Source of the DNA: an uncultured Candidatus Saccharibacteria bacterium
GTDB lineage: Bacteria; Patescibacteriota; Minisyncoccia; Phycocordibacterales; CAIZLB01
DNA: 64,000 bases
Assembly: GCA_964550955.1 (NCBI GenBank)
Contig: CAZKAF010000001.1
Location: 99,951-163,950 of the forward strand
Direction: 5' to 3'
Shown here: positions 2 through 60,646 of the stretch, piece by piece
How the letters are laid out: the number at the start of each line of letters is the position of its first letter
Position numbering within the stretch: position 1 is the first letter of the stretch
Notes under the pieces: generated by a model
Told to the model about the DNA's origin: nothing
The model's database searches: none
The model's input: only the letters and a program-made list of their open reading frames with translations
Position numbers and translations under genes: made by a program

Positions 2-946
2 ATCTTCATGGATTTCTCGGTTTCTTTCGAGCTTAAGAACAACGTCATAGATTCTGTCGGAAACGGCATCAAGGTGAATGAGCATGTCACGCTCATGGGC
101 GCGAAGAAAATCACCGGCAACGGCATTGAGTCTGACGATTGGGCGCTGTACCTGGATTCGGCCGGCGTCGAGGCGCTTGGCAACGCGTTCAAGTCCGACA
201 AGTGGGTTTACAATAACGCATCCGGCAACGCGTTCGATAACGGAACGTCCGGCAACAAGTATTATTTTGCAAACGGCAGCGGCGCATGGACGCAGTTCGA
301 TATCAAGGATTCAAATAATGATAACTGGGCCGATGAAGGGGATGATCTTCCGTTCAGCGAAGCGACGCTCGGCGAATTGCATTGGTTCGGCGCCGGTCAG
401 GATGCGCATCCGTGGACTGAAGTCGACGTTTCTGCTCCTGCCGGAAGCGGCCAGAATTCGGGCGTCGCTGCTTCAGGCGGCCCGGTGGCCGTATCCAGCA
501 CGGTCTATTGCACGAATGCGCTGACGACGTTCTGTTCACCGCAAGTGCCATCGCTTGCGGCGCCTGGGCAGGCCCTCTCCTCGCTGGTGCCCGCTGCCGC
601 TCCATTAGCCTGCGGTCCGGGCCATGTCTTTGATGTTCGAACCGGCCTGCGGTGCGGCGCAACTTCGTCTTTCGGACTTGCAACCGGTCAGGCGGCGTCA
701 TTTTCATTCGCGTTCACTCAGGACCTGTCTCTCGGAAAAGTGCATCCGGAAGTAAAGCTGCTTCAGCAGTACCTCAACGCGAATGGATTCGCAATAGCTC
801 GAAGCGGTCCGGGCTCCATCGGAAACGAAACGACGATGTTCGGGTCATTGACACGAAGCGCGCTCGCTCGATTTCAGCAGGCAAAAGGAATCGTTCCGGC
901 TGCAGGATACTTCGGGCCCGTGACAAGAACGTTTGTCTCAAGATAG
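2..946 (+). CDS. 5'-truncated secreted repeat protein; C-terminus has two peptidoglycan-binding (PG_binding_1-like) modules
   Basis: Frame is open from the window edge (track ORF 8..946). C-terminal ~60-aa modules of the form LQQYLNANGF...GPGS.GNET..FG..TR.AL..FQ.A.GIVPAAGYFG are repeated and shared with the next gene. Confidence 0.55.
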   Translation: MFMDFSVSFELKNNVIDSVGNGIKVNEHVTLMGAKKITGNGIESDDWALYLDSAGVEALGNAFKSDKWVYNNASGNAFDNGTSGNKYYFANGSGAWTQFDIKDSNNDNWADEGDDLPFSEATLGELHWFGAGQDAHPWTEVDVSAPAGSGQNSGVAASGGPVAVSSTVYCTNALTTFCSPQVPSLAAPGQALSSLVPAAAPLACGPGHVFDVRTGLRCGATSSFGLATGQAASFSFAFTQDLSLGKVHPEVKLLQQYLNANGFAIARSGPGSIGNETTMFGSLTRSALARFQQAKGIVPAAGYFGPVTRTFVSR

Positions 947-5210: not shown

Positions 5211-5279
5211 GACTATATAACACCTCTAAGGATAGATCAAGATTGATCAATTGTCCATTAAATGATACTATTCTGGCAT

Positions 5280-44050: not shown

Positions 44051-44559
44051 TCCCCTGTAGCTCAGCGGTAGAGCAATCGACTGTGAACGTGTCCTGCCTT
44101 TGATATACTCCAAAGTATGTTGAAAAAGAGGACATATGCTGATCGTGCGCCATATATGATTGAAGCTGTCAGAAAGCGGAGAATAAAGCTTCGCAAGATG
44201 GCCAGAGAGTATAAAGGCGGCAAATGTGAGATTTGCTAAATTCGCGAAGGCATAACGCAGCTTCCGGTACGAAAGTCCGGTCGCAAATAAGGTGAATTGC
44301 TGGAAGTCCTGATTCTCATGTCAGGATAATCAGCAGCCAAGCTCGGCAAGAAATTGCCTTGAAGGTTCAGAGACTATCCCTTCGGGGAGTAGTCGGATGC
44401 AGGTAGCAATGCAAAGCGTTCGACGAAGCGCCTTACGTCTAAACATGTATAAGTGCAGCAATGCAAAATTCATGCATGACGATGATATAGTCCACACCGT
44501 CAGTAATGATGGATAAACGTGTAATCGATTGGTCGTAGGTTCGATCCCTACCGGGGGAG
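44051..44559 (+). tRNA. tRNA gene split by a group I intron in the anticodon loop (anticodon UGU/Thr or GUU/Asn depending on exact junction)
   Basis: 5' exon: TCCCCTG-TA-GCTC-AGCGGTA-GAGC-A-ATCGA-CT... 3' exon: ...TGTAA-TCGAT-TGGTC-GTAGG-TTCGATC-CCTAC-CGGGGGA-G. The acceptor stem pairs across 435 nt. Confidence 0.7.
44083..44519 (+). ncRNA. group I self-splicing intron (no ORF)
   Basis: R element TTCAGAGACTAT (44366-77) and S element GATGATATAGTCC (44481-93) supply the P7 pairing GACTA/TAGTC. A G precedes the candidate 3' splice sites, a U precedes the 5' splice sites. Confidence 0.65.
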
Positions 44560-44561
44560 CA
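44542..44561 (+). repeat. attL: 20-bp core (tRNA 3' end)
   Basis: cgatccctaccgggggagca, identical to 52691-52710. Confidence 0.7.
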
Positions 44562-46137: not shown

Positions 46138-46254
46138 GGTTGTGTTTGCAACCTTGGTTTGTCAGTGATATTCTTCGGGTATCACTTAACAACGAAAGTT
46201 GCTTTTGTGTGTTATCTAAAAGACCTCTTGCTTAGCCGCGGGGGTCTTTTAGTT

Positions 46255-46476
46255 TTAATTAAATAGCGTTAGTACAAGAATCAATACAGTAAAAGTGAGA
46301 ATCCATCCAAGTTTTCCGTATTTCTTTTCCCATTGGATATTTTCTTTGACAGCGTGCAACATTATTTCTTGTTCTGACATTTTGTAAACTTCCTTATAGT
46401 TTTCTACTTTGAACTTGGCTGAAATGGTAGCTTCCAAATCTTCGCGACTAGTTTTTTCTTCTTTTGTGATTGCCAT
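46255..46476 (-). CDS. small protein with C-terminal TM helix
   Basis: 73-aa ORF on the island. Confidence 0.35.
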   Translation of the reverse strand: MAITKEEKTSREDLEATISAKFKVENYKEVYKMSEQEIMLHAVKENIQWEKKYGKLGWILTFTVLILVLTLFN

Positions 46477-46701
46477 TGCTTTTCAATTAGGTTGATAACA
46501 AGGCAAACGAAAAAGCGACAGCCGTTGCCTTGCAACCCATACTGAAAGCACAAAGGCTCGCAATCTGGAAGGTCAGCTGCCGCTTTCTAGTCCAGATTGG
46601 TTGGACCACAGAAAAACAGCGCTGCCTTTGCGCGTAAATATTCAATATGGGTTGCTCTTACATTCTACCATACTGAATGAGGGTGGCAACTTGTGGCAAG
46701 G

Positions 46702-46875
46702 TCAGCCATCGTCTGATTTCTCCACTTCAGCATTAAAATAAGCCTCAAGTATCGTGGTCAATAGCTTAATCATGGAGGTCTCCTCAATAGCAGCAATCAT
46801 CTTAAGATTTTGGTGCAGCTTCTTGGGTATCCTCACAAGCACAGTCTTTTTGTTTTGATGTAAATTTGTATACAT
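46702..46875 (-). CDS. 57-aa ribbon-helix-helix (CopG/Arc-like) DNA-binding protein (not in ORF track)
   Basis: MYTNLHQNKKTVLVRIPKKLHQNLKMIAAIEETSMIKLLTTILEAYFNAEVEKSDDG. A beta-strand plus two helices, with the KxxLxRIPxxLHxxLK pattern. Confidence 0.4.
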   Translation of the reverse strand: MYTNLHQNKKTVLVRIPKKLHQNLKMIAAIEETSMIKLLTTILEAYFNAEVEKSDDG

Positions 46876-47555
46876 TTTGTTTTAGTCGCCCGACTTTTAC
46901 CTTCTAACCCCCTCCTGCGGGATGCAGTTGCTGGGTTTCTTTCTGTATCAGACGGATGCCTTTAGTGCAGCAGCTACCCTTAAGTATTGCTCATTTGTGC
47001 AATCACTTTTTCGAACTCTGCCTAAAGATGAAATGCTGCGGCGCTCTTCATTGAACTGGGCGAGAAGTCGTACACTCGTTTTCCCAGTTTTTCGCAAGAA
47101 CGTCTCAACACTCCTTGTTGTTTTTAACGCGCTCCCTCCTCAGTCGCGCCATTGTGTAAGTGATGAGTTTTACTTCTGCCCACACTTAATAGAAGGTTTC
47201 GTCTGAATTGTTCAAGGCTAAATTAATAGCCCTAAAGCCCCTTGGTGGTAAAGTCCCAAACACTAAGAGGCTTTAGGAGTATCAATCTTCTTGTTCTTTT
47301 GAAGTATCACAAATAAACCCAGATAAAACTGAGCCACTGATTGGGCTATTGTATTAAGTTCATCATCAGCAATGAATACACCTGCCTTTGCATTGATTTC
47401 TTTGAACTTCTGTATTTGTTCGGGTGTTAGCTTCACTCATTGAGAATATCAGTAACTCTTATACACTCTACATACACCCTCCCAAGTCTATATTCAGAAA
47501 ATAACCCTTATTTCAGGCTGTCATCAATTACTTATTAACATGTACAAGGAAAAAT

Positions 47556-48191
47556 CTAGATTAAAGTTATGTCTAAATCAATCGTGTAGCCTTCGCCTCG
47601 AATACCTCTTATTGGCTTTGCTCCAGTATTAAGGAGTTTTATTTTTTCCATTACTTTATTTGTCTTTGTGATTAGCTCGCCGACTCGAATTCCATGATTG
47701 CCGAATGCAGACTGAATATCCTTTGTTTTAAGTGGTCCGTCAGTGTTGGCGAATAAAGTAAGTAATCTATAACGTTGAGATTCTTTGCTTACAGTACCTA
47801 TCTTCGTATCATCCATATAAATAGCCCCCTCAGAGTCTATTTTTATCTTAGTCTTTTTTGTACCAGTATATTGAGCGGGGTCAAAAGTCTTTGTATTAAC
47901 ATCGACAGCGTAACTTTCTGCCAAACCAACTTCATCAATTAAAGAAATGTCATCTGTCTTGATTACAAAGCATCTCTTCTGAGTGCTGCCTTTTTCTTTT
48001 TCATAACAGCCATAACCATGCTTAAAATCCTCAACAATTCCTAGCTGTTTGAAATGAAGTAGAATTTCGTACACATCTTGTCTTGTAAGGTCTTTTTGCA
48101 GCTCAGATATGGAAATACCCAGAGTCTTGCCACCAAACTGCTGGTTCTGCTGTTGAAGATAACTGAGGATTGTTCGCTCGTCTGATTTCAT
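47556..48191 (-). CDS. hypothetical protein with N-terminal winged-helix-like region
   Basis: 211 aa. Start codon overlaps the track start of the divergent Xis-like gene. Confidence 0.45.
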   Translation of the reverse strand: MKSDERTILSYLQQQNQQFGGKTLGISISELQKDLTRQDVYEILLHFKQLGIVEDFKHGYGCYEKEKGSTQKRCFVIKTDDISLIDEVGLAESYAVDVNTKTFDPAQYTGTKKTKIKIDSEGAIYMDDTKIGTVSKESQRYRLLTLFANTDGPLKTKDIQSAFGNHGIRVGELITKTNKVMEKIKLLNTGAKPIRGIRGEGYTIDLDITLI

Positions 48192-48231
48192 GTATATTTA
48201 CAGTATAACTTGCCACAAGTTGCCAAACAAC

Positions 48232-48414
48232 ATGCCTTCAAAAACACCCCAATTTTATACCCTGAAAGAGGCTTCTGAATTACTCAAAGTAAGTGTAAGG
48301 AGTCTATACCGTTATATTCAGACCAAAAAGTTGGTGGCAACAAAGGTTGGCTATTGGCGAATAAGCAAAAATGACTTAGACAGTTTTATTAAGGATGGCT
48401 CAAACATTAAATAA
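48232..48414 (+). CDS. excisionase-family HTH DNA-binding protein (MerR-superfamily Xis-like)
   Basis: YTLKEASELLKVSVRSLYRYIQTKKLVATKVGYWRISKNDLDSFI. The ATG at 48232 is preferred over the track start 48190. Confidence 0.55.
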   Translation: MPSKTPQFYTLKEASELLKVSVRSLYRYIQTKKLVATKVGYWRISKNDLDSFIKDGSNIK

Positions 48415-50266
48415 AATGAAACTGTATCTTAAATCATTGGAGCTAACAAATTACCGTACTTTCGGTAGTGAAACCCTAGATATAGATAAAGAGATAACTC
48501 TTCTTGTCGGGGCTAATGAATCAGGCAAGACTAATCTTCTGGATGCACTAGAGCTGCTTGATGTTGAGAAGACATTTAATGATTCGGATACAAAAATTAA
48601 CTCTGAATACTCCGCAAAGAATTACGAGCCATATCTAAGTTATAGAATGGAGCTGACTGAAGAAATGCAAACTAAGCTTAAAAGGTATGCAAGATACTTT
48701 GAAAAGAATAACGAGGTTTTTATAAATCGTAATGGGAGCGATATTGACGATATAACAGTAGATACGGTAAATGACGTAAGCTATGATTTCCCAATTGCAT
48801 ATAGGAACGTATCAGATGTAGAACAGAAACTCATTAGCAAGAACGGCATTGTGGCTCTTTCCCCGCAGAGTTACACACTTACTTCCATTAATTATTTCAA
48901 GAACTCAAAACTTTTCAAAGACGGAAAGGTTATAAAGATTGAAGATAAAGAAAGAAACAGGCTCCTAACTGCAAAAATAAAAGAAATTGTCTTGGAAAAT
49001 ATGCCATCTGTGTTTCTCTGGAAGTATTCAGATGCCTACTATATTCCCAAAGATGTACCGATTGATTTTTATAATCAGAAGGACAAATTTCAGTCTGTAA
49101 TAAATCTCTTTAAGTTGGGGGACATAGATGAAGATAAGATTGTTACACACCTAACGAATAGAGACAGTGTATACATAATCAATTTTTTGAATACTTTGTC
49201 TAAGAAAGTATCACTTGTGCTGAATAACACTTGGAAACAGAGGAAAAATATAAAGCTCAATCTTCATTTTAAAGAAACTTGGATAGAGATTCTGGTAGAG
49301 GAGAAGGACTATCAAATTGACCCAAATAAAAGAAGTGAAGGGCTACAGTGGTATCTTTCGTTCCTTATCAATTTTCGTTCAAAACTACAGACTCTCAAAA
49401 ATAATATAATCTTGTTTGACCAGCCTGGAGACAAGCTTCATCCTGGCGGACAAAGAGACCTTATGGAAAGATTTGAAGAGATGGCTGAATTTAATCAGAT
49501 TGTTTATTCAACTCATACGCCGTTTACAATAAATAAGGATTATCCAGAAAGAGTTAGGCTTATAACTAGACCCGAGGATGACAGTAAGATTATCAACAGG
49601 CTAAGTAACAGAGAGATTTTTAAGGATGAGTTATTGAGAAGCTCACTTGGTTTAAGTTTGTCTGATGTATCTCCTGTGGCTGAGAAAAATATTCTTGTTG
49701 AAGGTTTGTTGGATAAGCTCATATTAACGGATTTTATAGAGAAATTGAAAAAGTTTAAGTTCAGTATCAAGCTGAACCAGTCTGTTATCATTCCAGCGCA
49801 CAGCGCTTCGAAGATTCTTTATTATGCTAATTTTATTAAATCAAACGGATTAGACGTTTTAGCGATATTTGATGGAGACGCAGCAGGGAAGGAGGCAATT
49901 GTAGAAAATAAAAAGAAGAAGGTTTTGGAAAGTAGGGAAATCTTACTAGTGTCTTTAGGCAAAGGGACTGCACAAACTATAGAAGACATTATCCCGATAA
50001 AAATTATTACTGATTCTATTAATGAAATAGGAGTGCTTATTGATAAAAATAAATTTACTCCAATTGCATTAACGACAACACCAGTAATGCCACTTATAAA
50101 GGGTCATTTCGCAAAACTTGGAATGGATTTTTCAGAATCAGATAAACATCTGTTTTCAATTAAGGTATTGGAAAAGTTTAAGAAGATGCCCGTTAAGGAA
50201 ACGGATTTAAAGGGTAGTCTGTCAGGACTCTATGAATTAGTTAAAGAAATAAAAAAGAAGTTATAG
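48395..50266 (+). CDS. OLD-family nuclease: N-terminal ABC-type ATPase + C-terminal TOPRIM domain
   Basis: P-loop LLVGANESGKTNLL. Walker B/D-loop ILFDQPGDKLHP. H-loop YSTHTP. TOPRIM ILVEGLLDK...IFDGDAAGKEA. Confidence 0.7.
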   Translation: MAQTLNKMKLYLKSLELTNYRTFGSETLDIDKEITLLVGANESGKTNLLDALELLDVEKTFNDSDTKINSEYSAKNYEPYLSYRMELTEEMQTKLKRYARYFEKNNEVFINRNGSDIDDITVDTVNDVSYDFPIAYRNVSDVEQKLISKNGIVALSPQSYTLTSINYFKNSKLFKDGKVIKIEDKERNRLLTAKIKEIVLENMPSVFLWKYSDAYYIPKDVPIDFYNQKDKFQSVINLFKLGDIDEDKIVTHLTNRDSVYIINFLNTLSKKVSLVLNNTWKQRKNIKLNLHFKETWIEILVEEKDYQIDPNKRSEGLQWYLSFLINFRSKLQTLKNNIILFDQPGDKLHPGGQRDLMERFEEMAEFNQIVYSTHTPFTINKDYPERVRLITRPEDDSKIINRLSNREIFKDELLRSSLGLSLSDVSPVAEKNILVEGLLDKLILTDFIEKLKKFKFSIKLNQSVIIPAHSASKILYYANFIKSNGLDVLAIFDGDAAGKEAIVENKKKKVLESREILLVSLGKGTAQTIEDIIPIKIITDSINEIGVLIDKNKFTPIALTTTPVMPLIKGHFAKLGMDFSESDKHLFSIKVLEKFKKMPVKETDLKGSLSGLYELVKEIKKKL

Positions 50267-50566
50267 ATTTAACTTATGTTTTAGAGAGGAAAATATCGCA
50301 CCTACCAAAAAGCCAGCCAGGACACCAATCATGAAAAGTACCACTCCTGCGGCGTATGGATTATTCACTAATTCATTGAATTTTTCAGGATTACTTTTGT
50401 TCATTTCTTGGTAAGCGGCAACAACGATGACACCCCAAAAAGCACTGAAGCCTAAATATTCAAAATCGCTTATTGTCTTTCTGGAACCGTTGCCTTTTCT
50501 GTAACCCCACACCAAGCCAAAGCCAGCCAGTATGATTAGAAAGTAAGTATATGTATCTATGTCCAT
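50261..50566 (-). CDS. small membrane protein (coordinates approximate)
   Basis: Three TM helices beginning MDIDTYTYFLIILAGFGL. The track ORF extends to 50695, but the upstream part looks non-coding. Confidence 0.3.
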   Translation of the reverse strand: MDIDTYTYFLIILAGFGLVWGYRKGNGSRKTISDFEYLGFSAFWGVIVVAAYQEMNKSNPEKFNELVNNPYAAGVVLFMIGVLAGFLVGAIFSSLKHKLNL

Positions 50567-50747
50567 AGTGGCACAAATACTACATTTCTTGCGGCGAAAA
50601 GCAACCTCACGGTGCATATTAAAGTTGAGTCTTGAAAGGGTGTAAAGAGTGCTTTGTGGTACAATTATGCTAACATCAGTACACCCTATGACCATCTCAA
50701 ATAATCAATGTTTGCTCACAAATTTTGTCCTTGTTCCAGTCAATTCC

Positions 50748-51350
50748 ATGGAGCCTGCAACTTTCTTTACTGATAAAATAAAGGCAAAGTTTGTGGAGAT
50801 TTATGGAGATTCCAGCAAGCCGACAATAACTCAATTTCCAGAGCTGTTGGTAATTTTTGATGCTGTAAATCAAATTAATGTTTCTATAGAAAGAGGAAAG
50901 GCTGTGATTACTGACAGTAAGGTAACCAATTTCAATCAACGAGACCTAAATAAGTTATCTCAGTTTGCACACTCTATATTTAATGTTTTAGAGTTAGGGA
51001 AGTTAAAAGCTTATGGCTTTAATACAATTTGCTTAATGGATTTAGAAGCGGGAACTAATTCTTCGAAGTTGTTAAGCGATAGCTTTTTAAAGCTTGATAA
51101 ATTTACTTCAAGTGAAGGGGAAATAATTGGCGGAGGTGTAAGATTAATTTATAAAAATGCCTCGTCTGTGAGGAATGACCTAAGAATTGACCCATTCTTT
51201 GCTGAAGGTTCCCTTGATGAGACAGAGACGATAAGAGTGAATCAGAATTCAAATTTTGATAAGCAGGTCTTGCCAGATTTATCAGAGTTACAAGGTTGTA
51301 TTTCAGATATTTACAATGCATTGCCAGTTTTAATTGGAAAGCTTATATGA
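50748..51350 (+). CDS. hypothetical protein (island cargo, gene 1 of 3)
   Basis: The ATG at 50748 is in frame with the track GTG start 50649. The stop overlaps the next start (ATGA). Confidence 0.45.
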   Translation: MEPATFFTDKIKAKFVEIYGDSSKPTITQFPELLVIFDAVNQINVSIERGKAVITDSKVTNFNQRDLNKLSQFAHSIFNVLELGKLKAYGFNTICLMDLEAGTNSSKLLSDSFLKLDKFTSSEGEIIGGGVRLIYKNASSVRNDLRIDPFFAEGSLDETETIRVNQNSNFDKQVLPDLSELQGCISDIYNALPVLIGKLI

Positions 51351-51775
51351 TTGAACATAATTTAATTAAAATCGTGACAAGCGATAATATTTCTGTGACT
51401 ACTCAGCCTATGGGTTTGGGGGTTGCCTTGTCAGACACATACATTATCGATACCTCAAAGTGTATTGATAATGTAACCCAATTTCAATATGTAGGCTCTG
51501 TTTCTGCCCTTACGACTAGTTTTACAATCACGCATAGAAACGACTCTGGTTTCAGTAATTCTGATTTAAAGAGATTAAACAAGATTGTATACAACTTTCA
51601 GGATACATTGCCTCATACAGTTATATTTGAAAAAGTTAAGAAATATGAACATCGTTTTAACTTAAAGTCTGAGGATTTTCACACAAAGTGGGAATTAGGA
51701 GAATTACCTGCGACCCCTGAATTTTATGACTGGAATAACTCCTACAAGACTTTAAATTTAAATGTCAGTAAGTAA
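51347..51775 (+). CDS. hypothetical protein (island cargo, gene 2 of 3)
   Basis: Translationally coupled; overlaps the next gene by 14 nt. Confidence 0.45.
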   Translation: MIEHNLIKIVTSDNISVTTQPMGLGVALSDTYIIDTSKCIDNVTQFQYVGSVSALTTSFTITHRNDSGFSNSDLKRLNKIVYNFQDTLPHTVIFEKVKKYEHRFNLKSEDFHTKWELGELPATPEFYDWNNSYKTLNLNVSK

Positions 51776-52244
51776 ACGTGTACAGTATATAAAAGATACT
51801 ATTAAAAGTTATAAAGATATTTTTGAATATCCAGAGGTGTCTTTAAATTCAGTAAAGACTAGCAATAATAGTATCTACTTTCCTCGGGAAGTTGATTTTG
51901 ATAAGGCTGAGGGTGCCGAATTGAAAGGGGGAGTCGGTTTCCTCTCTGTTTTTGAGGATTATGATGAAACCAATAAAAAAGTCAAAGGATATATTTATCG
52001 ATTTTCATCTGACGAATATACGTACCTAGTAGAACATAAAAAATCAAAAGAATGTGTAGATACATATTTTAATTTTCATTACCAGGATGACGATAAGCAT
52101 GAACCTCACGTTTCATTTCTCCACAATTCAATTCGATACAATTCTGCAAATATTCAACTGGATGAATTTCTTGATTTCGTTAAGAGAACCTTTATGGGTC
52201 CACGAAAAGGAATGAATTATAGAGTTTGGCATTCGAGGAATTAA
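51762..52244 (+). CDS. hypothetical protein (island cargo, gene 3 of 3)
   Basis: 160 aa; no family recognised. Confidence 0.45.
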   Translation: MSVSKRVQYIKDTIKSYKDIFEYPEVSLNSVKTSNNSIYFPREVDFDKAEGAELKGGVGFLSVFEDYDETNKKVKGYIYRFSSDEYTYLVEHKKSKECVDTYFNFHYQDDDKHEPHVSFLHNSIRYNSANIQLDEFLDFVKRTFMGPRKGMNYRVWHSRN

Positions 52245-52690
52245 TTCTGGGCTTTTTCCTCCTCTAAGAGCGGGTATCCTACCGTCTATCTAAAATAACG
52301 TTTAGGAAACTGCCAGTACCTAAATTTGAAAACCCTGAAATCCGCCATGCGTTGCTCGAAGGGTATGTACTTTTCTATCATATTTAATGATACGGTCTAT
52401 ACCCATGCTAATACTTTTGACACGCTCGCTCCATAATACTTACCAATCCCCAGGATTGCATGCGTATGTATCAGTATGACTATGTATATGTAAGGTTACT
52501 TAGCTGACTATCGCCAATAAAGTCCTTATTTGCTGTATCGAAACAGAAGGATGGGGGAAAACCTCATCCCATTTCATGGTTCGTATAACATCCCTCCATG
52601 CGAGCAGAAAAAGAAAGGGCGCCAGCAAAGCTGGTGCTTTTTCTTTTTCCTGTGACCTGGGTCAGCGATCGAATTTCGACGAAGGAGGGG

Positions 52691-53325: not shown

Positions 53326-53422
53326 AACTTTAACTAGGCAAGGCCTAGACGGATAGATTAAGCATATATATTTCCAAGGTTCCGATATCCCGTACCATGT
53401 CGAGTGGGTATTGACTAAAATA

Positions 53423-53508
53423 AAGAAACATGGTATTAATATGCCAGGTTCTTCATGTTATATGGGTAGCGGCTTTGAAAGGAAGCCCTGGTGTCCCAAA
53501 CCTTACAC
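53423..53508 (+). promoter_or_regulatory. conserved intergenic element, copy 1 (degenerate palindrome + 35-nt motif ending 18 nt before ATG)
   Basis: aagaaacatggtattaatatgccaggttctt ... gcggctttgaaaggaagccctggtgtcccaaaccttacac. Confidence 0.5.
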
Positions 53509-53526
53509 CTAAAGGATAGTTATTAT

Positions 53527-54051
53527 ATGCACATTGTTATGTTGGTCATGTTTGCCGTTGTGTCGCTCACGTTGCTGGGCGTGGTGGTTCTGATTGCAAA
53601 GGAAAGGCTTCGGGATCTCGGACATTTCATAAACGTCTGCGTCTTGGCCACGTTCGTCTGTGGAAACCTGATTTCCAATGCGGTCTTCTGGACTCTTCAC
53701 GTGGATTCGCTCTTGGTGCCGCTCAAAGAGCAGTTTCGAATGGCATCTGCGACGGAACCGAGGCATCGGTACGCTGCAAGTGACAGGGGATCAACTCTTG
53801 ATTACGGCGGCAGATTGGACCGCATCGTCCAAGAGAGGGACGCTCTTACCAAAGAGATGGGCCTGATCGGGATTGGGGTAAGCTGGCACACCGACGGGGA
53901 CTCAGTCAGTTCCGTTGGAATTTACCTCCATGCCGGATTCCTTGCTATCTTTTCAGTGCCAGTCATCCTTCTCGCGTTGCTGGTCTGGCTCACCAAGGGG
54001 TCGCGCCAAGCGTATTGGCGCAGAAAAGATGCGCGCCGCCCGCTGGCCTGA
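53527..54051 (+). CDS. hypothetical membrane protein
   Basis: The ATG at 53527 is chosen because the track GTG start 53491 lies inside the conserved upstream element. Confidence 0.5.
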   Translation: MHIVMLVMFAVVSLTLLGVVVLIAKERLRDLGHFINVCVLATFVCGNLISNAVFWTLHVDSLLVPLKEQFRMASATEPRHRYAASDRGSTLDYGGRLDRIVQERDALTKEMGLIGIGVSWHTDGDSVSSVGIYLHAGFLAIFSVPVILLALLVWLTKGSRQAYWRRKDARRPLA

Positions 54052-54059
54052 CAATACCG

Positions 54060-54112
54060 CCTCCTGGCGACAAGAAAAACCTCTTGTCGTGACAGGGCAG
54101 GCGGTTTTTTTT
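54060..54112 (+). terminator. rho-independent terminator
   Basis: CCGCCTCC..CGACAAGA-aaaacc-TCTTGTCG..GGCAGGCGG followed by T8. Confidence 0.6.
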
Positions 54113-54285
54113 ATTTATATTCATCAAGGCTCTGACATCTCTCAGCCCTCTGAGCAAAGCGGGCAAGATGTAATATCCCTCCGGCGTTACCGTCAGCATA
54201 GAATCTCGTTTTACATCCCTGAGTGGATAGTATTATAATATAGCCGAGAACCAATATAAGTATAATAATAAGTATAATAAAAAAT

Positions 54286-54588
54286 ATGGAATCAGGACCA
54301 AAACAACCGATAGAGTCAAATGAAGGAGTTTCTCAAAAGGAACAAATTCAAACAGTGCTGTCAGCGCTGAATGGGGCAAAATCCATGCCCGCGGGGAGCG
54401 AGCGCGACGCGTTCGTCCAAGAACAGTTTGATGCATTGGCTGGAGTCATTCCGCCTTCGATAAATAGGGCAATGGATGTGGGCGGCAGGAAAATCTGGCA
54501 ATTTATTGCACAAGGCGAAGGCTTCGATCTTTCAGTAAACGTGGTGGCCACGCAAGAATCAATAGTGGTTAATTGCGTGATGGATTAA
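54286..54588 (+). CDS. hypothetical protein
   Basis: 100-aa ORF. Confidence 0.4.
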   Translation: MESGPKQPIESNEGVSQKEQIQTVLSALNGAKSMPAGSERDAFVQEQFDALAGVIPPSINRAMDVGGRKIWQFIAQGEGFDLSVNVVATQESIVVNCVMD

Positions 54589-54657
54589 TTTGTTTAATCT
54601 TGTTCATTGCGTGCCGATGACGCGTCGGCGGGCCATTATCACATAATTCACAAATAT

Positions 54658-55080
54658 ATGTCTGAAACACAAATGTTTCCAGCGATACGATTCAATGACC
54701 AGAAATGCCGGGAGGCCATGGAGTTTTATAAAGATTGTTTTGGCGGGGAGCTTCAATTCATGACCGTCAAGGATAGTCCGATGGCGGCTGACATGCCGGA
54801 AGATGCGCATGGCCTTGTCATGCACTCGACTCTTAGGAACAATGGCTGGACGCTCGTCGGTTCCGACATGATGAGGGATCGCGCCGTAAGCGGCGACCAA
54901 GTCGGCGTCATGGTTGATTTTAAAAATGAATCTGAATTGCGAGCGGCCTTCGACAAGCTTGCGGTTGGCGGTGAAGTATTCATGCCGGTCGAGGACGCGT
55001 TCTGGGGAGCATTTTTCGGCGTACTGACCGACAAGTACGGAGTAGAATGGTCGCTTAACTGCACGAAGGTCCAGGGCTAG
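54658..55080 (+). CDS. VOC-family (glyoxalase/PhnB-like) protein
   Basis: FYKDCFGGEL...VMHSTLRNNGWTLVGSD...FWGAFFGVLTDKYGVEWSLNC. Confidence 0.65.
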   Translation: MSETQMFPAIRFNDQKCREAMEFYKDCFGGELQFMTVKDSPMAADMPEDAHGLVMHSTLRNNGWTLVGSDMMRDRAVSGDQVGVMVDFKNESELRAAFDKLAVGGEVFMPVEDAFWGAFFGVLTDKYGVEWSLNCTKVQG

Positions 55081-55108
55081 GGAGGGTTGATTGCATGGAC
55101 AAAACTAA

Positions 55109-55190
55109 AAGAACGTGGTATTAATACCACGTTCTTTTGCATAAAGGGTAACGGTCTTGAAAGGAGGCCTCGGTGTCCCGAACAATACAC
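55109..55190 (+). promoter_or_regulatory. conserved intergenic element, copy 2 (28-bp perfect palindrome + 35-nt motif)
   Basis: AAGAACGTGGTATTAATACCACGTTCTT (55109-36), 19-nt gap, then CTTGAAAGGAGGCCTCGGTGTCCCGAACAATACAC (55156-90), then 18 nt, then ATG. Confidence 0.55.
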
Positions 55191-55208
55191 TAAAACGGGT
55201 AAAATAAA

Positions 55209-55670
55209 ATGAAGGACGTTCGTTTTGAACAGCAGGGCAGTGTCGCCGTCTTGGTGCAAATCCAATGCGAATGCGGCAACAATGTCATGGAAAATGCCGA
55301 GAACGACGGAATGGCGTTCAAGCATGAGGTGTTCATGGGCAGCGGGAGGGAAGTTGAGTTGCACTGCGAGTGCGGCCGGGCGTACAAGCTGCGTCCGCAG
55401 AACGGGCATGTGCATGTCGCCGAGGCTCATCCTCCTATCCGTCCCGGCACGACGATCGTGACGACTGCTGAAAATGCTGATTTGTCAGGAGAATGGACCG
55501 GCGAGGCCAAGGCCGCCCGGAAGTGGGGAGTGAACGGTACGATTATCGGCCACCACGACTCCCATGGCTTGTGCTACGTTGTTCTTCACGAAGATGGATC
55601 CGAAGGGGTCTATAATCCCAGCGAGATTCGCATCGCAAAGAGGAAGAAACAAGGTCGCGACTCTGCTTAA
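55209..55670 (+). CDS. hypothetical Cys-rich (zinc-ribbon-like) protein
   Basis: CECG...HCECG pairs; 153 aa. Confidence 0.5.
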   Translation: MKDVRFEQQGSVAVLVQIQCECGNNVMENAENDGMAFKHEVFMGSGREVELHCECGRAYKLRPQNGHVHVAEAHPPIRPGTTIVTTAENADLSGEWTGEAKAARKWGVNGTIIGHHDSHGLCYVVLHEDGSEGVYNPSEIRIAKRKKQGRDSA

Positions 55671-55796
55671 GCTCTTAAGCTGCCAGCAGGCTGCGCCTCA
55701 AATGAAATTAATGTGCCATCCGAGATATTCTCGGATGGCATTTTCTATGCATGCGGGATGTTGCCCTGAACCGCCTTCGGGATTACCATTAGGGCC

Positions 55797-57080
55797 ATGG
55801 TTAGGAAAGCTTCAAAAAATAATGAAAATGCGGATGCGGATGAGGGCATGGATTTCGACAGCGAAACCCGGGCAATCGAGCCATTGGCATCGCGCATTCG
55901 GCCTTTGTCGCTCGACAGCTATGTCGGCCAAAGCCATTTGATAGGCGAAGGGAAGCCGCTTCGAATCGCCATCGAAAAAGGGCATATTTTTTCTTTCCTG
56001 CTCTGGGGTCCGCCCGGCGTCGGAAAAACTACGCTTGCGCGCATCTACGCGAATGCTGTCGACGCGGACATGCATGAACTTTCTGCGGTTTCGGCTGGCA
56101 AGGACGAGATGAGGGCGATAATAGAAGGAGACAAGGGTGTCAGGAAGAAATCGCTGTTTGAACTCGATGCGTCACGGCAAGCGTCCGGCAAGCGTCCTAA
56201 GATTTTATTTATCGATGAGATCCATCGTTTCAATAAGAGTCAGCAGGATTTTCTTTTGCCGTATGTCGAATCAGGCGCGATAACCTTGATTGGAGCGACG
56301 ACGGAGAATCCGAGCTTCGAAGTCATTTCAGCCTTGCTGTCGCGGTGCCGGGTATTCACTCTCACCGAATTGAACGAAGCCGAGATGTTGCAGATCATTG
56401 ACCGTGCTCTCAAGGATAAGAAGGGAAGGAGAGCGGCACTCAAGATGGATAAGAAGGCGAAGGAATGGCTTGTTGCCATGGCGAACGGAGATGCGAGGCA
56501 AGCCTTGGCCATGATCGAGTCTACCGAGCGGCTCTACGGAACCGTCACGGTCGAGACGCTCAAGGAAACGCTTCAGTCGAAGTTCCTGCGCTACGACAAG
56601 AAGGGCGAGGAGCATTACAATGCTATCTCCGCTTTTATAAAAAGCATGCGGGCCAGCCAGCCTGACGCTGCGCTCTATTATCTGGCCCGCATGCTCGACG
56701 CGGGCGAAGATCCTAAATTCATCGCAAGGCGCATGGTGATCTTCGCCAGCGAGGACATCGGCTTGGCCGTTCCAACTGCGCTGGTTGTCGCAAACGAAGT
56801 CTTCCGCGCGGTCGAGGTCATCGGTCTTCCGGAATGCCGGCTTAACCTGGCGCATGGCGTGGCGTACCTTGCGACCTGCAAGAAGAGCAGGGCCGTCTAC
56901 GACGGAATAGGAGCAGCCATGGAGGACGTGAAGGTTCATGGCAATCTGCCCATTCCGCTCAAGATTCGCAATGCGCCGACCAAGCTCATGAAGGAACTCG
57001 ACTACGGCAAGGGCTATGAAAAGTACACCAAGGAAGACCTGATGCCGGAAAAGCTCAAGGGCAGGAAGTATCTGCATTAG
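55797..57080 (+). CDS. rarA: replication-associated recombination protein A (RarA/MgsA), AAA+ ATPase
   Basis: VGQSHLIGEGKPLRIAIE...LWGPPGVGKTTLARI...ILFIDEIHRFNK. Confidence 0.9.
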   Translation: MVRKASKNNENADADEGMDFDSETRAIEPLASRIRPLSLDSYVGQSHLIGEGKPLRIAIEKGHIFSFLLWGPPGVGKTTLARIYANAVDADMHELSAVSAGKDEMRAIIEGDKGVRKKSLFELDASRQASGKRPKILFIDEIHRFNKSQQDFLLPYVESGAITLIGATTENPSFEVISALLSRCRVFTLTELNEAEMLQIIDRALKDKKGRRAALKMDKKAKEWLVAMANGDARQALAMIESTERLYGTVTVETLKETLQSKFLRYDKKGEEHYNAISAFIKSMRASQPDAALYYLARMLDAGEDPKFIARRMVIFASEDIGLAVPTALVVANEVFRAVEVIGLPECRLNLAHGVAYLATCKKSRAVYDGIGAAMEDVKVHGNLPIPLKIRNAPTKLMKELDYGKGYEKYTKEDLMPEKLKGRKYLH

Positions 57081-57151
57081 GGCTTGATATCAACACGCTG
57101 ATTCGGCTCTGGTTTCGTTTTTTTATTTTATATCAATAAGAAGAGGTATTC

Positions 57152-57748
57152 TTATAATCCTCGAGCTTTCCATGCCTCTTTCATCCTTTCCATCTTTTCA
57201 AGCGCCGGACCTGTCCGCGAAGGGTCGACGTTCCGCTTCATGGCATCAATGAATCCTTGCGCGCCGATCAGGTCGGTACCTGCTTTGATTTTCTGCTCAT
57301 TGCCCTTAAGAACGATCGTGCTTGTCCATGTGCCGAAGCTGACGCTGGTCACGTCTTTCCAGTGCAGGGCCGAATATGCGCCATACATGTCCCAGCCTTC
57401 GATCTTGTCGTCATCGTATCGAATCATCATGTTGCGTCCGGAGAGAACCATCCACATGCCGAGCAGGATAAACAACATGAAAAAAGCCGAGAGGAAGATA
57501 AAGAATATGACAAAAGGCGGCTGGTCTGAGACGTTTTTTAAACGAAGAAAAATCCCTATCTCGACGGCCAGGCAAAAGACAATCAGTGCCCAGCCGATCG
57601 CTCCGTAGATTTTGCCGTGCTTCAAGACCTTTAGCCCGTCTACATTCGGGGCAACCTCAAGCTTTGATTTTTCATCCATGTTTTTTGACAGGGCGCCAAG
57701 AAGCGACATGGTAAGATTCGTGGCAACTGATCCATTTTTTGGTTTCAT
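57152..57748 (-). CDS. hypothetical membrane protein
   Basis: Two TM helices in the central region; 198 aa. Confidence 0.45.
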   Translation of the reverse strand: MKPKNGSVATNLTMSLLGALSKNMDEKSKLEVAPNVDGLKVLKHGKIYGAIGWALIVFCLAVEIGIFLRLKNVSDQPPFVIFFIFLSAFFMLFILLGMWMVLSGRNMMIRYDDDKIEGWDMYGAYSALHWKDVTSVSFGTWTSTIVLKGNEQKIKAGTDLIGAQGFIDAMKRNVDPSRTGPALEKMERMKEAWKARGL

Positions 57749-57776
57749 GAATGAATTATACGCAACTTGCGAAGAT

Positions 57777-58148
57777 TTACGACTTTCTTAAAATTTTCTC
57801 CATCGCTTTTCCTTTTGCCAGCTCATCTATCAGCTTGTCCAGATATCGAATTTCCCGCATGAGGGAATCGTTGATTTCCTCTATCCGAACGCCGCAGATC
57901 ACGCCGGTAATAAGGCTTCTTGAAGAATTCAGTTGAGGGGCTTCGGCGAAGAACGTCTCAAAGTCAGTTTCTTCTTTCAGGCGCGACTCAAGCTGTTTTT
58001 GGCTGTATCCGGTCAGCCATCGGATGACCTCGTCGACTTCTTTCTTCGTCCGTCCTTTTTTCTCCGCTTTGGCAATATAAAAAGGATAAATGCGTGCGAA
58101 GCTTGTTGCATAGATGCGATGTTTTGTTGCGGCGGATGATTGCTTCAT
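57777..58148 (-). CDS. DUF2200-family protein
   Basis: [39 protein letters not shown]. Confidence 0.5.
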
Positions 58149-58459
58149 GATTTCTTTTTAGATTTTTTGCCGAGCATGTACTTCTGCGACGGACTGACCG
58201 GCTTGTCCGATCGGTGAACGCAGCCCATCCAGCAGCACGGACGGCGTTTTCCGTCCATGAGTTCCGTGACCGCTCTCTCAACATGCTGGTCCCTGGTCTC
58301 TTGCTGCTTGACTGACACGACCCAGCAAATCCATTCATTGCGGGCGAGCGGCGTGATGCTTTCCCACATCTTGAGAGCGCCCGATTCAGCGGCAAGGGCT
58401 TTGCGCAAATCTGCAGGCAGCTTGTGCGCGGTGCCGCCTGAAATTTCTTTTTTTGACAT
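58145..58459 (-). CDS. YdeI/OmpD-associated family protein
   Basis: [13 protein letters not shown] motif; 4-nt overlap with the downstream gene. Confidence 0.5.
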
Positions 58460-58628
58460 GCAGTCATTTTAGCAAAATACGCTTCATTTTGAAACGCTCG
58501 CGCGGAGAGGAGATATGGCTGACGGGAGAGACGGTTGGCGCCGGAACGGGAATGCCTTGATGATATTGACTAAGGAAAATGACGTGATATAAATACGTCA
58601 CGTTCTTTCACGTTTCAATTCAACCAAC

Positions 58629-58916
58629 TTGGAAAAAGATATTATGGACAAAAATTCAAAATGGATGGCGATTTCGGGGTTTGCCGGGCTGTCTCTCTTC
58701 TTGATTGCGAATTTCACCAATCTGTTTGCGGGATCAAGCGTCTTGGCCGGATGTCTTCAGCTGGCCGTCAATGCTTTCGTGTTTTTTGTCTGGACGAAGG
58801 CGTTCATGCAAAGCTCCGGTTTCAAAAAGTTCGTGGCCTTCTTCGGAGTAATTGTGCCTGTCATGATGGCGGGCATAACGATCTTTCGGGTACTCATTCC
58901 TGCAATTATTCGCTAG
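58629..58916 (+). CDS. small membrane protein
   Basis: 95 aa, three hydrophobic helices. Confidence 0.4.
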   Translation: MEKDIMDKNSKWMAISGFAGLSLFLIANFTNLFAGSSVLAGCLQLAVNAFVFFVWTKAFMQSSGFKKFVAFFGVIVPVMMAGITIFRVLIPAIIR

Positions 58917-58994
58917 GCTTAGTTTTTCGGCATAAGCTTTCTGCGCATCCCATGAGACCCTCCACAGCTCCCGGGCTTAATTAGACAGATTACT

Positions 58995-59075
58995 AAGAAC
59001 GTGGTATTAATACCACGTTCTTTAATTAGCGGGCAGAGGCCTTGAAAGGAGGCCTCGGTGTCCCGAACAATACAC
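58995..59075 (+). promoter_or_regulatory. conserved intergenic element, copy 3 (28-bp perfect palindrome + 35-nt motif)
   Basis: Identical palindrome (58995-59022), 18-nt gap, identical 35-nt motif (59041-75), then 18 nt, then ATG 59094. Confidence 0.55.
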
Positions 59076-59093
59076 CGAAAAGGATAAGGTAAC

Positions 59094-59357
59094 ATGAAAG
59101 TGCTGATATCAGATCATCAATGGTGCGAGGGTCATGCCCGGTTTGGGGATGACGGATGGAAGTGCAAGACTACCGGTGCCGAAATTGTCGCGACGACAGT
59201 GGGGCGCTCTCTGCATGACGGGCCGTTCCCGCTTTCCGGCAGCGGGCGAGTCGTTGATGTCCTGCATCTGCATTGCCCCGCATGCCAGCCTGACTGGAAA
59301 AAGCCGAACCATGGTACCCCGGTCAAGCCTGAGCAGATTGCCAACGTGTCGGGCTAG
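59094..59357 (+). CDS. small Cys/His-rich hypothetical protein
   Basis: CEGH...C.C...HLHCPAC; 87 aa. Confidence 0.45.
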   Translation: MKVLISDHQWCEGHARFGDDGWKCKTTGAEIVATTVGRSLHDGPFPLSGSGRVVDVLHLHCPACQPDWKKPNHGTPVKPEQIANVSG

Positions 59358-59536
59358 CATCCAGCCCATTGCCGTCTCCGGTCGCGAAAGAGGAAAACCT
59401 CTGTCGCGATGCGGCGGCGGTTTTCTTTTTTTTTCATTCCAGCTTTCGAGTCCGTGCCGCCTTTGCGGCAGCTTTCCGCTCGACTGGACATTTGGTTTCG
59501 GTATAGTACTCTTTTTTCAGGCAAGGCACATTAACA

Positions 59537-60646
59537 GTGTCAGAACAAACAGCTCAAGAAAGGAACACGAAACACATGAATACAGCGCTTTCAACTCCGT
59601 CCGACAAGGTACGGGCTTTGTGGCAAAAGGCCAATTCGCTTTGCGGATGCATGGCTCATATCAGGACCGTCAGCGGACGCCGCCGGTTTCCGGAAGGATT
59701 CGAAGAGGAGGAGCCCTTTCGGGTAAGGGATGATTTCGCCGCCGACGAGGCGAAGCTGCTTTCCAGCAAGACCCTTCGTCTCGCCGAACGCAAGACGCAG
59801 GTCTTCACTCTTCCGCACAACAAGCTGGTGCGCACGCGGCGCACCCATACGGACGAGGTGATAGCCATCTCGGTCATAGCGGCGGAAATGCTCGGGCTCA
59901 ACACGGGCCTGGTGCGAGCGGCTGCCATCGGTCACGACATCGGCCATGTGCCGTTCGGTCATCAGGGGGAGGAATGGATGGCCAGCCGCATGGGAAGGCC
60001 TGAATTCTGCCATGAAGTCATGGGCGTAATCGTCGCTCAGAAAATCGAGCGGGCGGGCGCGGGACTGAATCTCACGTTTCAGACTCTGGATGCCATGCAT
60101 CGCCATAGCGGAAACAGGGTTTCGTCCGGAATGACCCCCGAGGCGTGGGTGTTGCGGTATTGCGACAAGGTCGCGTATCTTTTCGCGGATTACAACGACA
60201 TCTTCGTCCGGGCAAAGTTCGCCCGCATCAAGGAATTGGACGATCTCGTCAATGAGTTCGGCGAGAATCAGCGGCAGCGCTCAAGCACTGCCATCGCGGC
60301 TCTCATTGTCGAATCGAGCGAGCTGAAAAAAGTCTCGTTCGAGCAATCCGAATGGGGAAGGAAGTTTCAGCGAATCAGGACGCTGATGTACGGGGTTTAT
60401 CCTCGCGTCACGCAGCAGGATGTCGGATCCGTCCTCGGGCCGGTGCTTGATTTTCTTCAGAACTTGGGGCACGGCGATCCGTTTCTTCTGCTCGCGCTCA
60501 TGACTGACGAGGACGTGATGTCCATCGCGTCATGCCAGGTGAAGGATTTCGGATGCCTCACGCGTACTTCGGCGGGCGAAATCATTCCTCATCTGGAACA
60601 GATCGGCCGCGTTGACCTGTGCGACCTTGATCTTTCCTGGCGATGA
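59537..60646 (+). CDS. HD-domain phosphohydrolase, dGTP triphosphohydrolase-like
   Basis: RTHTDEV...HDIGHVPFGHQGE. An alternative start at 59576 is possible. Confidence 0.7.
   Translation: MSEQTAQERNTKHMNTALSTPSDKVRALWQKANSLCGCMAHIRTVSGRRRFPEGFEEEEPFRVRDDFAADEAKLLSSKTLRLAERKTQVFTLPHNKLVRTRRTHTDEVIAISVIAAEMLGLNTGLVRAAAIGHDIGHVPFGHQGEEWMASRMGRPEFCHEVMGVIVAQKIERAGAGLNLTFQTLDAMHRHSGNRVSSGMTPEAWVLRYCDKVAYLFADYNDIFVRAKFARIKELDDLVNEFGENQRQRSSTAIAALIVESSELKKVSFEQSEWGRKFQRIRTLMYGVYPRVTQQDVGSVLGPVLDFLQNLGHGDPFLLLALMTDEDVMSIASCQVKDFGCLTRTSAGEIIPHLEQIGRVDLCDLDLSWR

Follow-up and report, generated by a model that had tools for sequence, protein, structure and literature searches.

What does the repeated intergenic sequence in front of three small genes of a Saccharibacteria genome do, and does it act as DNA, as RNA or as both? 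The sequence lies in 64,000 nucleotides from an uncultured Candidatus Saccharibacteria bacterium (GenBank assembly GCA_964550955.1, contig CAZKAF010000001.1, positions 99,951-163,950 of the forward strand); this whole stretch is called the window below, and coordinates refer to it unless another locus is named. A preliminary description noted three copies of a composite element, each a 28-bp palindrome followed by a 35-nt motif that ends just before a start codon, and offered a promoter, an operator, a terminator and a structured 5' leader as candidate functions. We find it likely that the element combines a promoter and operator with a transcribed, conserved leader RNA. The full statement further has the leader act after transcription, on ribosome binding or mRNA stability; in it the fold, the repressor, ribosome capture and the start of transcription are inferred, and we hold it with slightly less than even confidence.

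Exact copies of the palindrome, AAGAACGTGGTATTAATACCACGTTCTT, lie at 55109-55136 and 58995-59022, and the window has no other match with up to three mismatches; in 100 shuffles, 0 were expected by chance. The 35-nt motif, CTTGAAAGGAGGCCTCGGTGTCCCGAACAATACAC, occurs exactly at 55156-55190 and 59041-59075 (again 0 expected by chance), and its core GGTGTCCCRAAC is found three times, at 53490, 55172 and 59057, against an expectation of 0.3. These exact pairs define copies B and C. Copy A is diverged, with a degenerate palindrome at 53423-53453 and a variant of the 35-nt motif at 53472-53508. The ATG codons at 53527, 55209 and 59094 each lie 18 nt past the end of the motif as it was first delimited. 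Both the two exact palindromes with their degenerate third and the common distance to the three ATGs were thus described correctly.

Copies B and C are identical over the palindrome (28/28) and the 35-nt motif (35/35), whereas the 18-19 nt between the two blocks and the 17 nt after the motif differ. Identical blocks with different spacers suggest that each block is under its own constraint, and speak against one recent duplication. A covariance model of all known copies, run with filters off, gave exactly three matches in the window, at 65-68 bits, with the next-best score below 9 bits. The conserved element is longer than first drawn: it begins about 10 nt further 5', with a GGG at 53464, 55146 and 59031, and extends one base further 3' to complete ACACC or ACACU. 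The exact 18-nt spacing between motif and ATG is a feature of this genome only.

The palindromic block coincides with promoter-like sequence. In all three copies a -35-like hexamer stands exactly 17 bp before TATTAA, which is preceded by TGn, as in an extended -10 element, and sits at the dyad of the palindrome. The putative promoters, all on the plus strand, comprise TTGACT (53411-16), the 17-bp spacer and TGG plus TATTAA (53434-39) for copy A (53411-53439, from sequence reading); TGGACA (55096-101) and TGG plus TATTAA (55119-24) for copy B (55096-55124); and TAGACA (58982-87) and TGG plus TATTAA (59005-10) for copy C (58982-59010). The palindromes, to which no strand is assigned, are putative operators: the degenerate one of copy A (53423-53453), with half-sites AAGAAaCaTGGTAT and, as reverse complement, AAGAACcTGGcaTAT, overlaps the -10; the perfect 28-bp palindrome of copy B (55109-55136) has its dyad on the -10; and copy C has the same perfect palindrome (58995-59022). 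A fourth site on the plus strand, site D (58566-58607), lacks the leader motif and reads TTGACT-16-TGaTATAAA within an imperfect palindrome, TGACGT..ACGTCA, whose right arm is CACGTTCTT (58599-607). It lies between a divergent OmdA/DUF2200 operon and a small membrane open reading frame (ORF) at 58644-58916, which it is predicted to drive. A -35-like hexamer, a spacer of 16-17 bp and TGnTAT(T/A)AA are common to all four sites, and in each of them ACGTG..CACGTTCTT arms flank the -10. The -35 hexamers match the consensus at 4-5 of 6 positions, and TGn and A2 of the -10 are present at every site. From this arrangement, the palindrome is most likely an operator placed over the -10 for a dimeric repressor.

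The preliminary description had also considered the palindrome as the terminator of the upstream gene. If it were only an intrinsic, perhaps bidirectional, terminator, the promoter geometry would be coincidental. All three copies do lie 3' of a co-directional gene. In copy B the 14-bp hairpin, flanked by A/U runs and followed by UUUU, is found 27 nt past the stop of a glyoxalase-like gene that ends at 55080, and a terminator scan flags this palindrome on the minus strand. The stem is nevertheless AT-rich, with 5 GC pairs in 14, and the U-tract is weak in copy C and absent in copy A. The same arms recur at site D, which stands between divergent genes and has no co-directional gene upstream, so a terminator role makes no sense there. 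Furthermore, a terminator needs neither 28/28 identity nor a -35-like hexamer at exactly 17 bp, and the downstream genes would be left without a promoter. We consider it quite unlikely that the palindrome is a terminator and nothing else; the operator half of the earlier suggestion fits better, and the terminator half does not hold at site D. It is possible, judging from the hairpin and its U-run, that the copy B palindrome doubles as the terminator hairpin of the glyoxalase-like gene.

In known operators that overlap the -10, such as LexA boxes and phage and XRE-type operators, a perfect palindrome on the -10 is likewise repeated at neighbouring promoters. The present palindrome differs from LexA operators in having GAAC-N16-GTTC, whereas the Gram-positive-type box is GAAC-N4-GTTC, and a LexA/SOS box was rejected on this spacing. 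So far the palindrome belongs mainly to this genome. A short relative, ACGTGTTTAATCACGTTCC, stands directly upstream of a leader copy in an Andersenbacteria metagenome-assembled genome (MAG) (locus L005, ~4590-4625).

The second block is the inner part of a leader of about 46 nt. Its core consists of GGG, a 2-4-nt linker, a hairpin termed P1 (GGCY-UU-GAAAG-GA-R-GCC), 2-3 nt, GGUGU, CCC, 7-10 A-rich nt and ACACC, and P1 displays the invariant UUGAAAGGA. The three window copies are on the plus strand. Copy A (53464-53509; covariance model 65 bits, alignment A5) reads GGG-UAGC-[GGCUUU GAAAG GAAGCC]-CU-GGUGU-CCC-AAACCUU-ACACC. Copy B (55146-55191; 66 bits) ends in ACACU, which keeps a G-U pair in the GGUGU/ACACC stem, termed P3. 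In copy C (59031-59076; 68 bits) P1 is lengthened to 8 bp by GAGGCCUU/GGAGGCCUC, and this leader alone folds with a z score of -2.6.

The leader is rare and widely scattered. The pattern TTGAAAGGARGCCYYGGTGTCCC matched 6 of 185,579 species-representative genomes, once in each, and all six are MAGs of the candidate phyla radiation (CPR): one each from Staskawiczbacteria, Taylorbacteria and Andersenbacteria and three from Saccharibacteria (four candidate phyla). A looser, gapped pattern applied to metagenomes gave 11 contigs, one of which carries a 23S rRNA gene containing a group I intron. After removal of duplicates there are 17 distinct leader copies, 3 in the window and 14 outside it. All 17 score 60-78 bits with one covariance model, and nothing scores between 10 and 60 bits. 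Every copy is in the sense orientation and is followed, 12-15 nt past ACACC (17 nt in the window), by an ATG that opens an ORF of 53-251 codons. Neither further nor diverged copies were found beyond these 17 with covariance model R1 in the window, including a run with filters off, or in ~300 kb of related loci. Thus, the preliminary view of a single composite repeat private to this genome needs revision: the leader spans several CPR phyla, and only the full palindrome has been seen nowhere else.

No catalogued RNA family accounts for the leader. Over the window, the sole Rfam 15 match at gathering thresholds is a group I intron at 44195-44513, with none at the leader motif; a permissive search (E<=10) of 58960-59110 returned sub-threshold hairpin noise on the palindrome only, and a search of 16 related loci gave no match at the leader motif. 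The literature, searched both by topic and by sequence string, yielded no account of the motif. The IMG/VR viral contigs, searched with the motif, a relaxed motif and the palindrome, yielded two chance matches only, both rejected by the covariance model, and a phage origin of the leader was discarded on this result. Three loci (L008, L014 and L016) have a common, different upstream context without a TTGACA promoter, and at loci L008/L013 (73-822) the leader precedes a 249-aa signal-peptide protein with a weak match to Gcw_chp (PF09694), a mostly proteobacterial family. From these contexts, the range of the leader may extend beyond CPR lineages. At locus L015, a metagenome contig, the strand opposite to the leader contains a LOOT RNA at 2330-2448 (Rfam RF03000, 75 bits), ~130 nt away from the leader and across its promoter region.

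The position of the promoters indicates how the 35-nt motif is used. Strict promoters of the form TTGAC[ATG]-16..18-TAnnnT precede 9 of the 14 non-window copies and stop 10-38 nt short of the GGG; the background is 0.7% of random 85-nt windows. Because a canonical promoter stands upstream of the motif in most of these copies, the motif is read as transcribed and as part of the 5' untranslated region (5' UTR), not as a promoter in itself. Hairpins with T-runs, which we read as terminators, lie 3' of the ORFs in the window and at loci L017 and L018, and the units appear from their sequence to be monocistronic, with promoter, leader, ORFan and terminator. About 10 of the 17 copies also have, 5-12 nt before the GGG, a semi-conserved and pyrimidine-rich GYUCUUUG. 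Pairing of this semi-conserved 5' GUUCUUUG with the P1 loop or the Shine-Dalgarno (SD) region was considered and rejected, as the duplex energies were no better than those of shuffled sequences.

If the 35-nt motif instead acted as DNA, it could be an alternative-sigma promoter, as the preliminary description proposed, a second operator, or a recombination or mobile site resembling attC or a miniature inverted-repeat transposable element (MITE). It does contain TTGAAA-18-AACAAT, a weak 9/12 match of sigma70-like type, the units of leader plus ORFan resemble strain-variable accessory cassettes, and those in the window adjoin a low-GC island with a serine recombinase. Yet the -10-like part is not kept in copy A or in the class-2 copies, and most copies have their canonical promoters further upstream. 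G-U is accepted at a variable position of the stem, as is typical of RNA, and the orientation is strictly sense. There are no terminal inverted repeats, target duplications or integron integrase, the only recombinase being the serine recombinase 8 kb away; no copies lie off gene starts in the 64 kb and ~300 kb of loci; and the element is absent from IMG/VR viral contigs. We find such a DNA role of the motif scarcely credible. A selfish repeat (repetitive extragenic palindrome or MITE) and an integron attC site were likewise rejected, since all 17 copies are in sense and 12-17 nt before an ATG, and the earlier argument for function over a selfish repeat holds on the same grounds.

We tested the structure of the leader on the hand-registered alignment A5, with a model consisting of P1, P3 and a crossing GGG/CCC helix. 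In this model 99.2% of the alignment cells are paired, compared with ~60% when the partners are slid by 1-3 columns. One P1 pair truly covaries, occurring as U-A (10), C-G (3) and U-G (3). Three further pairs show single G-U substitutions, and at locus L011 a broken C-G pair is offset by a longer stem (UUGG/CCAA). The covariation analysis that the preliminary description proposed over all copies gave near-complete pairing and a single covarying pair. The data are compatible with a modelled two-hairpin or H-type pseudoknot fold but test it weakly. Tolerance of G-U pairs together with strict strand orientation favours constraint at the RNA level rather than the DNA level, as far as the aligned sequences indicate. 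In native context, P1 and P3 are both part of the predicted minimum free energy fold of most copies. The mean predicted unpaired probability is 0.61 for GAAAGGA, 0.18 for a conserved GUG downstream of it and 0.57 for the main start region. Of the functions first offered, a structured 5' leader, proposed from the hairpin GGCC-UUGAAAGG-AGGCC, is the one that the evidence favours.

The genes behind the leader have little in common. Gene A (53527-54051, plus strand) encodes a 174-aa membrane ORFan and is followed by a terminator-like hairpin at 54083-54110. Gene B (55209-55670, plus strand; terminator 55713-55741) encodes a 153-aa Cys-rich ORFan (CxC...CxC) without a Pfam or NCBIfam match. Gene C (59094-59357, plus strand; terminator 59401-59420) encodes an 87-aa ORFan of a small conserved family (HDGPFPLSGSG...CPxC), whose members (P0007-P0013) have 85-95 aa and an invariant HDGxFPLSGSG...CPxC signature. 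A confident AlphaFold model of the gene C product, built with 8 homologues (mean predicted local distance difference test score 84.7), matched no fold in the PDB. Neither Pfam, NCBIfam nor all-against-all BLAST revealed a common family among the proteins downstream of the leader, and none has a Pfam or NCBIfam domain except for the one weak Gcw_chp match. A RarA-like neighbour, considered as a common feature from locus L006, turned out to be a DNA polymerase III delta'-type clamp-loader ATPase. Gene A also has an in-frame GTG at 53491, inside the motif: the Logan-derived proteins contain a 186-aa form that starts there (P0006), and the NCBI record contains the 174-aa ATG form. This discrepancy arises from the SD-like sequence and GUG in the motif.

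Four homologues of gene C in other genomes, with 41-65% identity, were inspected; each lacks the leader and has a canonical SD behind an ordinary promoter. One gene homologous to the C-terminal half of gene B likewise has an ordinary promoter and SD without the leader motif. A pair of metagenome contigs shares 97.7% identity over 3 kb and diverges precisely at a leader plus ORFan that only one of the two contains. On the basis of these leader-free homologues and the contig breakpoint, the leader behaves, as judged from sequence comparison, as a portable module that is attached to accessory genes and tied to no gene family. The putative mobile promoters and reused 5' regions described elsewhere (PMC3488235, PMC3575422) are similar in that a 5' regulatory sequence recurs before non-homologous genes and across phyla, but here it is the transcribed leader that is shared, and the promoters vary from copy to copy.

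How the leader might act depends on how its hosts initiate translation. Among the confident genes of the window, 3 of 30 have an SD-like tetramer upstream, and at the other motif-bearing loci the proportion is 5 of 53 genes. Hexamers resembling a -10 element (TAnnWT) crowd 6-8 nt before the starts, with 11 matches in 56 window genes and no more than 3 at any other distance (e.g., 22276, 24828, 39864, 54286 and 57748), which indicates leaderless mRNAs. From these counts, the host appears to be SD-scarce and rich in leaderless mRNAs; against such a background, the predicted ~80-nt structured leaders of the window genes are unusual. Some CPR lineages have been reported to be SD-scarce (PMC10783764, section iv). 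Upstream of a 100-aa ORFan that starts at 54286, the AT-rich segment 54210-54285 consists of reiterated TATAAT-like units (agtattataatata...aatataagtataataataagtataataaaaaatATG), the last of which ends 7 nt before the ATG, so that this mRNA is probably leaderless.

Within the leader, GAAAGGA is invariant in all copies, and the longer GAAAGGAGG is present in 6 of the 17, ~40 nt before the ATG. The latter is the exact complement of the canonical anti-SD sequence CCUCCUUUC (PMC10783764, Table 1), a canonical tail that may not be the host's. In all 17 copies the SD-like sequence, a 5-nt spacer and GUG are invariant. An SD-like sequence far from a start codon has a precedent in the STAB-SD of cry3A, which binds the 30S subunit from the 5' UTR without initiating and blocks RNase J1 (PMC4113751).

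We propose the following mechanism. The DNA module would be a sigma70-type promoter (xxGACa, 17 bp, TGnTATTAA) with its -10 at the dyad of the 28-bp palindrome, and a dimeric repressor bound there would co-regulate at least four promoters in a 6-kb stretch. The RNA module would be a ~80-nt 5' UTR transcribed from the palindrome promoter, with the ~46-nt leader as its core, and would fold into P1 and P3 (GGUGU/ACACC), an H-type pseudoknot via GGG/CCC and an A-rich third loop. Near the 5' end of the mRNA, the P1 loop would present a 7-9-nt complement of the canonical 16S tail (GAAAGGA[GG]). The loop would then bind a 30S subunit and serve as a standby site or, in the manner of STAB-SD, as a 5' stabiliser. 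Once captured, the subunit would either be passed on to the start codon ~40 nt further 3' or shield the mRNA. This use of the SD complement in the loop to hold 30S, and thereby to set downstream translation or stability, is the mechanism that we tentatively prefer, and we would not rank it above possible.

Several points weigh against this mechanism. (i) On the DNA side, position 6 of the -10 is A, not T, at all four sites (TATTAA/TATAAA), a consensus promoter scan called none of these window promoters, and no cognate regulator gene was recognised nearby. (ii) The covariation support for the fold is weak, and 9 of the 14 pairs in the model are the same in every copy, partly as a result of search patterns in which most of these bases were obligatory. 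(iii) Some CPR lineages reportedly have no CCUCC anti-SD at all (PMC10783764, section iv). (iv) Ribosome capture leaves the equally invariant GGUGUCCC, ACACC and GGG unexplained, and the G/A position of GGAGG tracks its P1 partner, not the anti-SD. (v) The fixed distance of 12-17 nt to the ATG is foreign to STAB-SD. The idea that the leader replaces a missing SD was dropped as an argument, since the hosts are SD-poor in general and an SD-free gap between motif and ATG in the other genomes is not special.

The invariant GUG invites a different reading, in which GAAAGGAGG, the 5-nt spacer and the GUG form a near-perfect ribosome binding site for an upstream ORF (uORF), which would terminate near the main ATG and allow re-initiation by translational coupling; where the frames agree, the GUG would be the true start codon. 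The arrangement is kept in 17/17 copies. The GUG frame continues into the main ORF in 4/17, as in the GTG form of gene A, P0006, in the protein collection, and in the other 13 the stop codon of the uORF falls at -18 to +92 relative to the ATG, including 5 ATGA overlaps. However, the frame of the GUG relative to the main ORF is spread 8/3/6, and an indel in the motif shifts it, so that the peptides differ after residue 3 and no conserved peptide remains. Synonymous positions are equally invariant, the ATGA overlaps are trivial given that ATG-A is common (12/17 copies), and the GUG is mostly paired in P3, with the mean unpaired probability of 0.18 given above. A uORF initiation cassette is therefore very unlikely in our view, and a leader-peptide or uORF attenuator was rejected because neither frame nor peptide is conserved.

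A more serious contender is that the leader is a riboregulator of the aptamer type, in which the pseudoknot is bound by a small molecule or an RNA-binding protein, for example a CsrA-like one, and controls whether the start codon is accessible. In that case the SD-like sequence would serve for recognition by this partner and not for contact with the ribosome. Several features of the leader fit: its ~46-nt length, its modelled H-type topology with an A-rich third loop, and its invariant loop and junction bases beside the start codon. Translational switches of the preQ1-I and SAM-II type have such a compact architecture beside the start codon. CsrA-like proteins recognise A(N)GGA exposed in the loop of a short hairpin, and their targets usually have another GGA at the SD. 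All copies have AAGGA in P1, at the junction of loop and stem, and in copies A and C of the window a second AAGGA stands at the SD position ~40 nt away. The near-identity of the sequence across phyla would also fit a conserved partner. Nevertheless, the non-window copies are without a second GGA, no Rfam family matches even at E<=10, and the element is rare, with a single copy in each of 6 genomes among the 185,579 species scanned. The downstream genes are unrelated ORFans, unlike those of metabolite riboswitches. On balance we regard this explanation as unlikely, although it deserves serious attention.

Like the compact riboswitches preQ1-I and SAM-II, the leader has 35-50 nt, crossing stems 1 and 2 in its modelled fold, an A-rich third loop and a place immediately upstream of the start codon. 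It differs in that a hairpin is inserted in loop 1 and the SD of the main gene lies outside the pseudoknot. Membership in either class was rejected, as no model matched and the downstream genes are unrelated ORFans without Pfam domains that form no coherent gene set.

Parallels to 30S capture by the P1 loop come from the STAB-SD and polypurine stabilisers of Gram-positive bacteria, represented by cry3A of B. thuringiensis (Agaisse and Lereclus 1996, summarised in PMC4113751) and by SP82, ermC and hbs in B. subtilis (PMC3997798). In both cases an SD-like polypurine lies in the 5' UTR, too far from the start codon, and the complement of the 16S tail is near the mRNA 5' end and portable to unrelated genes. 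In contrast to those stabilisers, the SD-like sequence is part of a conserved 46-nt two-hairpin or pseudoknot element that ends a fixed 12-17 nt before the ATG, and an invariant GUG, mostly paired in P3, follows 5 nt after it. Moreover, the hosts are SD-poor CPR bacteria, and a stabilising role is here a proposal from sequence. The published STAB-SD is reported to read GAAAGGAGG, which is the same 9-mer as in 6/17 leader copies.

A further comparison is provided by rpsU of Flavobacteriia, where an extended SD is used for regulation by 'SD-blind' ribosomes as a rare, strong SD (PMC7797042, PMC9976891). In both cases an SD-like sequence of great strength is found, though rarely, in a lineage otherwise without SDs. 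They differ in that rpsU is one gene family, with bS21 autoregulation and an SD at the normal distance, whereas the leader precedes unrelated ORFans, is structured and places its SD-like sequence 40 nt upstream. By extension, the leader could be a horizontally exchanged ribosome-recruitment module, with an extended SD shown in a structured loop, whose ORFans are translatable only with a free 16S tail or in a particular ribosome state; we consider this version doubtful.

The surroundings of the three leader-bearing genes have features of their own. These genes begin just past the right edge of a low-GC island at 44548-52300 (35-42% GC, compared with ~52%), which adjoins a split tRNA gene. The island contains a large serine recombinase (44548-46137, minus strand), several ORFans and an OLD-family ATPase/TOPRIM nuclease (48395-50266) with Old, AriA and GajA as best PADLOC matches. 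From this content, the segment resembles a mobile or defence island that has become integrated. The tRNA gene (44051-44560) is split by a group I intron in the anticodon loop, with the 5' half (acceptor, D-arm and anticodon stem) from 44051, the Rfam intron core at 44195-44513 and the 3' half (anticodon stem, T-arm GGTTCGATCC and acceptor) ending near 44560. ARAGORN misses the gene unless the intron is removed by hand, and the anticodon could be Thr-UGU, Asn-GUU or His-GUG, depending on where exactly splicing occurs. Directly downstream of copy C, an HD-domain protein (59537-60646) matches dGTP triphosphohydrolase models and a PADLOC anti-phage dGTPase (E = 4.7e-29), all below the NCBIfam cut-offs. 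A type II 5-methylcytosine (m5C) methyltransferase is located at 5262-6521.

The leader is apparently a cis-acting RNA motif of CPR bacteria that has not been described previously. In kind it is a structured 5'-UTR regulatory motif; what is unusual is that it is nearly invariant and portable, and that it precedes unrelated ORFans across candidate phyla in SD-poor hosts. The CPR bacteria, or Patescibacteria, make up a large share of bacterial diversity, yet little is known of their gene regulation, they have few recognisable regulators and few of their RNA motifs have been catalogued. The leader opens post-transcriptional control in these organisms to experiment and marks a set of ORFans that are probably co-regulated, and the palindromic promoter defines a small local regulon and thus a DNA bait for its regulator. 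If the SD complement in the loop is functional in hosts that otherwise shun SDs and prefer leaderless mRNAs, it would bear on how translation initiation has diversified in reduced genomes, and the leader might also serve as a compact, portable expression part; if the leader is indeed a ribosome-recruitment module, it would define a regulon at the ribosome, in the manner of rpsU but extending over unrelated genes and candidate phyla.

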